A stretch of 16,792 nt of DNA from the IMG/VR virus record IMGVR_UViG_2859810971_000005, one strand, 5' to 3'. The stretch is from a virus. Taxonomy: Duplodnaviria; Heunggongvirae; Uroviricota; Caudoviricetes. The position numbers and the translations under genes were made by a program. Shown here piece after piece: positions 13,998 to 14,316 of this stretch. Under the pieces are notes generated by a model, which worked only from the letters and a program-made list of their open reading frames with translations, was not told where the DNA came from and made no database searches. Each line of letters opens with the position of its first letter. The first letter of the stretch is position 1.

Positions 13998-14132
13998 AGG
14001 TTTCCCCCTGACGAATACGGGCGGCGAATACAGCAACACAACCGGACGGGCAACGGCTACGCGCTTCGCGTTCCGTCCAAGCGGTTACGTGGATGATTTG
14101 GGATTCTCCGGCACTCAGTGCCAGAAAACGCC

Positions 14133-14153
14133 ACACAAAGGCCGTTTGTGTGT
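14133..14153 (-). promoter_or_regulatory. perfect 8-bp stem-loop (CACACAAA-ggccg-TTTGTGTG) in the early-operon leader, followed on the minus strand by GCGUUUUCU
   Basis: Attenuator- or terminator-like structure upstream of the first early gene. Confidence 0.4.
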
Positions 14154-14218
14154 GTACAAGGTGTGGTATATGATTTACGGCAACCATAACGGCTCCTAGT
14201 TTACGTTGTTGGTTAGAA

Positions 14219-14258
14219 GCCCCGTTACTGCTCCTACAGTGCGGGGCTTTGCTTTTTG
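14219..14258 (+). terminator. rho-independent terminator-like hairpin on the plus strand
   Basis: GCCCCG-tt-ACTG-ctccta-CAGT-g-CGGGGC followed by TTTGCTTTTTGTG; lies upstream of the RHH gene inside the divergent control region. Confidence 0.5.
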
Positions 14259-14316
14259 TGTTGATTGTGTGTAATGTGTCACTACACATAAATACATTAC
14301 CTGAGGTGTAATTAAC

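Follow-up and report, generated by a model that had tools for sequence, protein, structure and literature searches.

In the immI region of phage P22, the ~70-nucleotide (nt) countertranscript sar is transcribed from a promoter at the start of ant, is complementary to the ant ribosome-binding site, and ends at an intrinsic terminator, all within a compact divergent switch run by the small ribbon–helix–helix (RHH) repressors Arc and Mnt. The C4 and CI RNAs, for their part, lie on the same strand as their target, are excised from the leader by RNase P, and act in trans on repeated target sites; in P1, blocked translation of icd silences the downstream gene. Here, we examined a 16,792-nt stretch of Caudoviricetes DNA (IMG/VR record IMGVR_UViG_2859810971_000005; "the window" hereafter denotes this entire stretch), which is a satellite of the phage-inducible chromosomal island (PICI)/P4 type, and focused on positions 13998-14316, at the head of its minus-strand early operon. 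We propose, with a probability of roughly two in three (0.68), that a countertranscript resembling sar or CopA represses icd, the first gene of this early/replication operon. By analogy, the closest counterparts of this arrangement would be P22 sar/ant and the plasmid copy-control RNAs, while P1 C4-icd and P4 CI-kil would be the closest in terms of target.

The target itself had been overlooked, as a preliminary description of this region considered it devoid of any convincing open reading frame (ORF). This can no longer be maintained: about two thirds of the supposedly non-coding 13998-14316 segment belongs to an icd/kil-like gene of 66 amino acids (aa) (13987-14187, minus strand), recognized through profiles, RefSeq homologs, and codon-position variability. 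The encoded protein (MVAVNHIPHLVHTQTAFVWRF...) matches NCBIfam NF033153 (phage_ICD_like, "host cell division inhibitor Icd-like", a 48-position domain) over residues 17-60 with 64.6 bits for a cutoff of 25 (E 6e-18), as well as PHROG 29966 (E 5e-32), and the sequence AGGAG, read as its Shine-Dalgarno (SD) motif (14193-14197, minus strand), lies 5 nt upstream of the ATG at 14187-14185. Across 43 unique icd coding sequences, variable sites were distributed 9/14/27 by codon position, and a W-x-F...E..AR...V.FA.RI core was retained in Icd-like proteins down to 33-45% identity. RefSeq annotates an icd homolog in each of the related islands that we fetched, where it invariably opens the operon. A tblastn search with the window protein among 50,697 phage records returned a single match, LR881103. 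With this ORF being real, the early operon begins at 14187 rather than at 13998, and the intergenic region is reduced to just 129 base pairs (bp; 14188-14316). Because P4 Eta/Kil (the ORF formerly described as the "cI gene product") holds the same Icd-like domain (residues 85-132, NF033153 73.9 bits), the window protein is, judging by its sequence, Kil-like and consists of a free-standing Icd domain. Cell-division inhibition and toxicity are known for P1 Icd and P4 Kil, the latter having been described as cell-killing (PMC10111431).

The start of this gene is covered by a structured unit on the opposite strand. When folded as plus-strand RNA, positions 14180-14258 form two hairpins at -30.5 kcal/mol (z -4.5), and none of 200 shuffled sequences was equally stable. 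The structured unit as a whole (14177-14261) spans both the ATG (14185-14187) and the SD motif (14193-14197) of icd. The "stem-loop-dense" character previously attributed to the region is thus confined to this segment, since the entire 319 nt barely departs from dinucleotide shuffles (z -1.7 for the minus strand and -2.0 for the plus strand). We predict from this fold and from a covariance model (see below) that 14180-14258 encodes a cis-antisense RNA of ~77 nt, with a probable 5′ end at 14180-14183 and a probable 3′ end within the T tract at 14251-14258, complementary to the first 1-3 icd codons (including the start codon), the SD motif, and ~60 nt of the mRNA leader.

Evidence for such an RNA comes from its second hairpin (stem-loop 2, 14216-14258, plus strand), which was retrieved by terminator scan, covariation, and a strand test. 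A terminator-like structure had already been noted on this strand, and it is indeed present, with AAGCCCCG (14217-14224) facing CGGGGCTT (14242-14249) and followed by TTTGCTTTTT. Its outer stem extends over 14216-14225/14241-14250, and encloses an inner ACUG/CAGU helix (14227-14230/14237-14240) and a CUCCUA loop, ahead of the U tract UUUGCUUUUU. Covariation across related islands had been suggested as a check, and we gathered ~190 related loci from Escherichia coli genomes, IMG/VR, Serratia, E. ruysiae, and E. albertii, from which 86 unique versions of window positions 14177-14264 were aligned (alignment A2); one E. albertii locus (L007) was left out because it is a P4-type locus with C4/isrK. 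Standard pairs were found at hairpin 14216-14250 in 96.5% of 1112 cells, with 9 of 13 pairs changed on both sides, and none of 500 shuffles reached the observed values, while sliding the partner by 1-3 columns brought pairing down to 40-52%. At one pair position, A-U, C-G, U-A, G-C, and G.U were all used, and RNAalifold predicted the same helix without guidance. Wobble pairs further indicated the strand: nine pair positions included 124 G.U/U.G cells when read on the plus strand, versus a single A.C cell, i.e., a G.U on the minus strand. Stem-loop 2 thus folds as a plus-strand RNA. Most variants also carry a T-rich tail on the plus strand, and the continuation on the minus (sense) strand reads UCUAACCA. 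Taken together, the covariation, the wobble strand bias, and the plus-strand T tail mean that 14216-14250, a GC-rich hairpin followed by a T tract, serves as the intrinsic terminator of RNA made antisense to the early operon, and is not an element of the early mRNA.

Stem-loop 1 (14182-14214, plus strand) was obtained in both the minimum-free-energy and centroid folds, and is composed of AACCAUAACG, the loop GCUCCUAGUUUA, and a CGUUG-UUGGUU segment. Its 12-nt loop displays an anti-SD that is the exact complement of the icd SD region, and its stem contains the anti-start-codon CAU, such that the complement of the start-codon region is paired with a conserved GUUGGUU segment. The closing stem was predicted by RNAalifold in all groups, and helix 1 was paired at 98.5%, the plasmid members having U-A in place of C-G. 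Among 90 unique sequences, the anti-SD was located in the hairpin loop in 44 and in the lower stem in the others. In the minus-strand fold, the sense leader mirrors these hairpins, exposing its SD in a loop while the UG of the AUG is base-paired, a classic arrangement for loop-loop recognition, and in the window GCUCCUAGUUUA thereby faces the mRNA loop UAAACUAGGAGC. The segment GGTGGTTAGA, considered at one stage to be an unexplained conserved spacer, is the 3′ half of the stem-loop 1 lower stem. Separately, the upper part of the terminator hairpin (CCGTTACTGCTCCTA, 14222-14236) is an 80% direct repeat of the segment opposite the translation initiation region (the "anti-TIR" segment, CCATAACGGCTCCTA, 14184-14198). 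This repeat places a second CUCCUA anti-SD in the terminator hexaloop, a feature common among variants without being universal, and may represent either a duplication relic or a second recognition loop.

A putative promoter for the antisense RNA can be placed within the icd coding sequence itself (14146-14174, plus strand, icd codons 5-14), with a -35 box TTGTGT (14146-14151), a 17-nt spacer, and a -10 box TATGAT (14169-14174) inside icd codons 5-7, from which transcription is predicted to start near 14181. This promoter is placed by consensus likeness and positional conservation. A TAnnnT box ends 13 nt before the CAT end in icd groups A and B (TATGAT/TATGCT), in group D (TACACT), and in plasmid copies (TAAGAT/TAAAAT); in group C and Serratia, a TATGAT/TATAAT box ends 7 nt before the CAT end. 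Overall, the fixed-distance box is kept across five different coding contexts.

We next evaluated the distribution of this RNA using a covariance model (R1) built from alignment A2. The window was matched at 14177-14261 on the plus strand (78.2 bits, E 2e-14), compared to 16-18 bits for the opposite strand of related loci, and one copy was found per island in the window, in TW14359, in locus L001, and in O157 Sakai Sp7. In the latter, the module lies immediately upstream of ECs_1577 (around NC_002695.2 1597424-1597510, minus strand). No R1 match was found in P4, in the E. albertii P4-type locus, or in 98 kb of the Sakai chromosome, and blastn of the RNA region against phages yielded no match. 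The same search against plasmids gave an unexpected match in Xylella pXFAS01, and R1 then matched plasmid sequences on which it had not been trained (two copies in Xylella, along with Xanthomonas, Pseudomonas, and Serratia) with 44-61 bits (E<=2e-7). These plasmids are conjugative with MOBP/MPF_T systems, except for the non-mobilizable pDCPR1. Each plasmid copy is antisense to the start of a gene with an LPD29 domain (PF18847) and no similarity to icd, and has the same two-hairpin fold and the TAAGAT/TAAAAT box at the same 13-nt distance. On the Pseudomonas, Serratia, and Xanthomonas plasmids, the LPD29 gene faces a divergent TOPRIM gene. On the X. fragariae plasmid, the only plasmid locus with a visible downstream gene, it is followed by trfA. 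A Rahnella megaplasmid island carries the icd version of the module. In a model-fitted alignment of 35 matches (A3: 28 R1 training sequences, 6 plasmid copies, and the Rahnella copy), 97.7% of cells were paired and 10 of 17 pairs covaried. No Rfam family matched the plasmid locus.

Some elements carry the module twice. pXFAS01 (locus L197) has two modules (1334-1422 and 2486-2574) that flank a korA-like gene, each fronting its own LPD29 gene, and an IMG/VR island (L059) has two copies ~870 bp apart (558-644 and 1425-1511). A candidate copy in the K-12 element CPZ-55 (L203 4301-4382, minus strand) was rejected as R1 reached just 17.2 bits (E 0.015). This weak match sits where yffL begins, right past intZ, and may be a decayed module remnant in a cryptic satellite or a chance occurrence.

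The comparison with described systems reveals both shared and distinct traits. As in P22 sar/ant, the predicted RNA would be a short countertranscript over a ribosome-binding site, with its own terminator, in an RHH-governed divergent switch; it differs in that it has no similarity to sar in sequence or by model, no Rfam family matches it, its target is Icd/Kil-like at the head of a replication operon instead of an antirepressor, and the family includes plasmid members. With P4 CI and P1-P7 C4 (along with isrK/seqA), the locus would share control of the same Icd-like family from the same position, immediately upstream and at the head of the early operon, whereas the window RNA is on the opposite strand, has its own terminator, and is not matched by RF01695 or RF01394. 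A recognition loop combined with a terminator hairpin, and a first cistron coupled to a replication gene, are by analogy reminiscent of plasmid copy control (CopA/CopT-tap of plasmid R1, RNAI-repY of IncI/IncB, and RNAII of pMV158), and the parallel extends to the X. fragariae copies fronting an LPD29-trfA operon and the satellite copies fronting icd...primase. However, there is no homology to these systems, the first cistron here encodes a genuine, conserved protein and not a leader peptide, and the coupling is putative. Finally, hok/sok and symE/symR also feature a cis-antisense RNA over the start of a small growth inhibitor and an mRNA start codon sequestered in a stem, but the target here is inside a regulated operon, and Rfam gave no match. 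Overall, this RNA gene would represent a conserved, undescribed, and unannotated antisense-RNA family with a familiar mechanism, provided that it is expressed as we infer from sequence.

The scenario that we favor builds on the ORF, the hairpin and its strand, their conservation, and the modularity of the unit, to which it adds an assumed promoter, RNA expression, pairing outcome, and RHH protein role. The promoter in icd codons 5-14 would fire rightwards, producing the countertranscript constitutively. Stem-loop 1 would then display the anti-SD in its loop and the anti-AUG in its stem, while stem-loop 2 would terminate transcription ~30 nt short of the early start site. The early mRNA leader would mirror these hairpins, with the SD in a 12-nt loop, and because the two RNAs carry mirror-image hairpins, loop-loop kissing would be expected to initiate their pairing before zipping into a ~75-bp duplex over the SD and AUG. 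This duplex would block icd translation and probably be cleaved by RNase III, and the 11-nt stop/start overlap between icd and the next gene could lower expression of the downstream early genes through coupling or polarity. In this two-layer control, the RHH protein bound to cassette-specific operators would provide the transcriptional layer, with the RNA mopping up leaky transcripts of the toxic gene.

Several observations weigh against this scenario. The toxicity of the window's Icd-like protein is assumed by analogy with P1 Icd and P4 Kil. For the proposed antisense promoter, the -35 box is weak or missing, and the promoter falls below the threshold of a generic promoter scan, which returned nothing in 13700-14700; in addition, a conserved Asn/Gln-His codon pair shares sequence with the -10 box in groups A-C, and protein constraint could thus mimic promoter conservation. 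The anti-SD of group C and Serratia is in a stem, not in a loop, and the T tract is poor in ~15% of variants. Many of the aligned sequences are closely related, hence cell counts overstate the number of independent events, although terminator variants have been shuffled between icd groups and the copies on plasmids are distantly related. Lastly, literature searches (Icd, PICIs and capsid-forming PICIs, antisense RNA, ECs1575-1578) and one RNase E-CLASH supplement revealed no report of this antisense RNA, and RNase E-CLASH supplements searched at the Sakai Sp7 coordinates contained nothing relevant. The small RNAs Esr41, AgvB, AsxR, STnc100, and Pas are lambdoid-prophage RNAs whose Rfam models do not match here.

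A resemblance to the RNA-based immunity and termination control of the P4 early operon had been suggested for this region, and is only partly borne out. The position does correspond, as P4 Kil/Eta has the same domain and the CI RNA is located immediately upstream, but no P4-type C4 or isrK RNA was recovered. Specifically, searching the window with Rfam 15 at gathering thresholds gave no match, and relaxing the limit to E<=10 across 13300-15000 added nothing relevant, including for C4 (RF01695, clan CL00128) and isrK (RF01394). A 24-bit rnk_pseudo match at E<=10 was at chance level and merely reflected the terminator. The same models performed as expected on positive controls: C4 (74.9 bits) and isrK (60.8 bits) were detected in P4 just upstream of the Icd-like domain, as were C4/isrK in E. 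albertii L007 (77.7 and 61.6 bits) and C4 in L001 (71.6 bits). The strand signal described above (124 G.U versus 1 A.C; 78 bits for R1 on the plus strand versus 16-18 bits on the other) is likewise not that of a C4-type same-strand RNA. Since the structured RNA is opposite to the operon, the mechanism would be antisense pairing and not a processed same-strand immunity RNA. In L001, a close relative, an additional ~450 bp directly 3′ of the small icd (6284-6751; near 13990 in the window, which lacks it) encodes another Icd protein, this one Eta-like (155 aa, 49 bits), and C4 is embedded in its gene at 6509-6596. Because the Rfam controls match while the window does not, and L001 has both, the antisense-type and C4-type systems are distinct and can coexist in tandem.

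A P4-like reading would further involve an attenuator formed by an intragenic hairpin and its U run. All inverted repeats named in the preliminary description are present, displaced by 1-2 bases at most, among them a perfect 8-bp repeat (14132-14139/14145-14152) with GCGTTTTCTG next on the minus strand, a nested hairpin (GGACGG 14044-14049/CCGTCC 14073-14078, with ACGCG/CGCGT inside at 14059-14071), and a short GGCAC/GTGCC hairpin (14110-14122). However, with 14187-13987 being icd, the hairpins at 14044-14078, 14110-14122, and 14132-14152 are all inside coding sequence, and none of the three has comparative support; what was described as an ORF-free array of stem-loops is thus confirmed for its repeats only. 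The 8-bp hairpin and the adjoining GCGUUUUCUG (14132-14152, minus strand, icd codons 12-19) encode H-T-Q-T-A-F-V-W-R-F-L, the U run corresponding to conserved Trp-Arg-Phe-Leu codons. Across the 43 unique coding sequences, 1 of 16 stem positions was variable compared to 3 of 5 loop positions, which hints at constraint, yet a conserved protein motif and the -35 box of the putative antisense promoter both overlap the stem, no compensatory change was seen, and the sole stem substitution disrupts a minus-strand pair. The hairpin is also restricted to icd groups A and B, with groups C and D having no U tract there. Its reading as an early-leader attenuator is not supported, although the hairpin might, as an unproven function, form and add polarity when icd is not translated. 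A same-strand immunity RNA or attenuator of the P4 kind would account for the location relative to the Icd-like domain, for the terminator-like flag of this hairpin on the minus strand, and for the low stem variation. Given that the controls were positive with nothing found here even at E<=10, and that the hairpin conserved in the leader belongs to RNA of the opposite strand and lacks a U tract in the sense direction, we regard this reading as hardly credible.

Three other readings retain the plus-strand RNA, or part of it, and assign it a different role. The same transcript could be the unstable antitoxin of a type I toxin-antitoxin pair, acting on a stable icd/kil mRNA such that loss of the element leads to growth arrest, with operon control not being its primary function. 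The target does belong to a family named for cell-division inhibition, with a cell-killing member in P4 Kil (PMC10111431), the SD/AUG overlap and the start codon held in an mRNA stem resemble hok/sok and symE/symR, and the module is found on plasmids too. Yet icd stands first in a long operon under an operator-controlled promoter and is not a free-standing constitutive toxin gene, and the plasmid target LPD29, next to trfA in X. fragariae and to korA in pXFAS01, is not a known toxin, which makes an addiction-like role unlikely. Alternatively, plus-strand transcripts from icd could be the mRNA leader of the divergent regulator (RHH or the plasmid TOPRIM), in which the hairpin would act as an attenuator; pairing with the sense leader would disrupt it, raise read-through, and so create feedback. 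This would fit with a terminator 60 nt upstream of the RHH start, T tracts that look leaky in some variants, and no convincing separate RHH promoter in 14259-14303 by generic scan and inspection. We consider it quite improbable as the RNA unit is swapped independently of the downstream cassette, with a breakpoint exactly at the T-tract end; the downstream genes are wholly different (RHH, YlcI/YnfO, HicB-like, or TOPRIM), and the L004-type regulator starts ~130 nt past the hairpin, behind further repeats taken as its own promoter region. Finally, the terminator could serve as an insulator only, shielding the switch from antisense transcripts that stray out of the early operon and yielding a non-regulatory product. 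The terminator is indeed well supported and the promoter merely inferred, but such a role would leave the conserved stem-loop 1, its covariation, the anti-SD display, and the fixed-distance -10 box unexplained, and it is the whole 85-nt unit, not a bare terminator, that recurs before an unrelated plasmid gene, so that we view this as very improbable. Pairing of a countertranscript with the icd start remains our preferred reading, and the proposal that regulation at the start of the early operon involves RNA is supported. Of the earlier proposals, it is the small regulatory RNA, mentioned only as a fallback, that emerges as the best one, along with the terminator and the P4-like position; the ORF-free region, the attenuator, and the C4-type RNA are not supported.

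These results may bear on how satellites are kept silent, as the silencing of Gram-negative PICIs and capsid-forming PICIs is poorly understood, and the PICI literature that we found covers AlpA-dependent activation only. A countertranscript over the first early gene, combined with swappable RHH/operator cassettes, would amount to a concrete two-layer switch. More tentatively, and with somewhat greater doubt than confidence, this widespread antisense family, with members in roughly one in four complete E. coli genomes, on Xylella, Xanthomonas, and Pseudomonas MOBP/MPF_T plasmids, and on a related non-mobilizable Serratia plasmid, could be a portable gatekeeper on the first early or replication cistron of unrelated mobile elements, and the missing RNA layer of quiescence or immunity in PICIs and capsid-forming PICIs, where it would replace P4 CI. 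Since the anti-TIR is near-identical across different repressor cassettes, the RNA of one island could cross-silence co-resident islands, and a chaperone of the ProQ/FinO type may dock at the conserved base of the terminator (UUAGAAGCC...GGCUUUG). The presence of the same RNA before the plasmid LPD29 gene, with trfA downstream in X. fragariae, likewise suggests a general control of copy number or establishment that annotation has missed in the absence of an Rfam family.

Upstream of icd, beyond the antisense unit, the divergent control region that had been postulated is real, albeit squeezed into ~60 bp. A putative early-operon promoter (14296-14323, minus strand) comprises a -35 box TTGACA (14323-14318), a 16-nt spacer, and a -10 box GGTAAT (14301-14296), from which early transcription would start near 14289 and produce a ~100-nt leader with the complements of both hairpins. 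In a set of 91 upstream cassettes of diverse sequence, the best sigma-70 match on the minus strand had a -35 TTGACA/TTGACG in 66, and in 68 its -10 box ended 100-115 nt ahead of the icd start codon. The promoter is overlain by cassette-specific, operator-like repeats (14265-14333), which a repeat finder resolved into a direct repeat (14272-14292/14313-14333) and inverted repeats (14265-14276/14280-14291 and 14271-14277/14294-14300); the last of these is the GTAATGT/ACATTAC pair already reported for this region, and the TGTG/CACA inverted repeat was likewise found. The conserved unit extends over 14004-14261, with BLAST matches in hundreds of genomes stopping at 14261, directly after the T tract, and beyond this point are at least 29 unrelated cassettes, each with its own 10-14-nt repeat pair. 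Calling the first ORF of divergent regulators is noisy and was used only for cassette-specific repeats and RHH-like N-termini; where callable, these ORFs are small, with an RHH-type N-terminal strand, or are of the YlcI/YnfO type. In the window, the divergent gene (14317-14496, plus strand) encodes an Arc-like RHH regulator (PHROG 228 "Arc-like repressor", E 2e-6; RefSeq homolog WP_000103622.1), with a weak YlcI/YnfO similarity (20 bits, below cutoff). Its GTG start and next two codons (GTG TCA ACA, 14317-14323) overlap the opposing early -35 TTGACA, so that 7 bp are common to RNA polymerase at the early promoter and to ribosomes and transcription on the RHH side. Just past the RHH stop, RHH transcription may end at a 12-bp plus-strand hairpin (14506-14532) whose T tail is weak (ATTGCTTTAC), ahead of a 58-aa ORF (14554-14730; PHROG 21027, unknown function).

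On the other strand, a 248-aa ORF (14196-14942, minus strand) had been judged implausible, and we concur because it matches no family in NCBIfam, the only library scanned for it, and runs antisense through the RHH gene. It is the positional counterpart of the legacy call ECs_1576 of O157 Sakai (247 aa; L196 6732-7475), and in the current RefSeq annotation of O157 strain 9234, the stretch at the ECs_1576 position is labelled as an incomplete Icd-like pseudogene. The annotation is thereby corrected: the icd-like gene of 66 aa is genuine, unlike legacy ORFs such as that of 248 aa.

The remainder of the window is organized as follows. The second early gene (13776-13997, minus strand; 73 aa) is an ORF with matches to PHROG 2512/5146, and its ATG (13997-13995) and the icd stop (13989-13987) form an 11-nt overlap, which suggests that it is probably translationally coupled to icd. 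Toward the end of the minus-strand operon are a DUF4222 gene (12246-12545) and a D5-type primase (10501-12249), and the alpA (15000-15188; Pfam PF05930, 65 bits) and integrase (15563-16792) genes are also on the minus strand. Near-identical DNA occurs in Shigella flexneri, with 100% identity across the studied region, and related E. coli islands run on into capsid and terminase genes, as in capsid-forming PICIs (O157 Sp7/EcCIEDL933). In the window, the early operon is split between the icd-proximal genes and DUF4222/primase by an IS1 transposase (12783-13286, minus strand; PF03400, 244 bits) and an adjoining small ORF, which together span 12783-13509, and this interruption has probably crippled this copy of the island. 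Lastly, a GC-rich hairpin (GGCGGCTCCATTTCGGGGCCGC, 14822-14857), for which Rfam returned chance-level matches only (ctRNA_p42d, 19.9 bits; STnc50, 23.4 bits), is flanked by T runs on both sides and, located between alpA and plus-strand small ORFs, looks like a bidirectional terminator.

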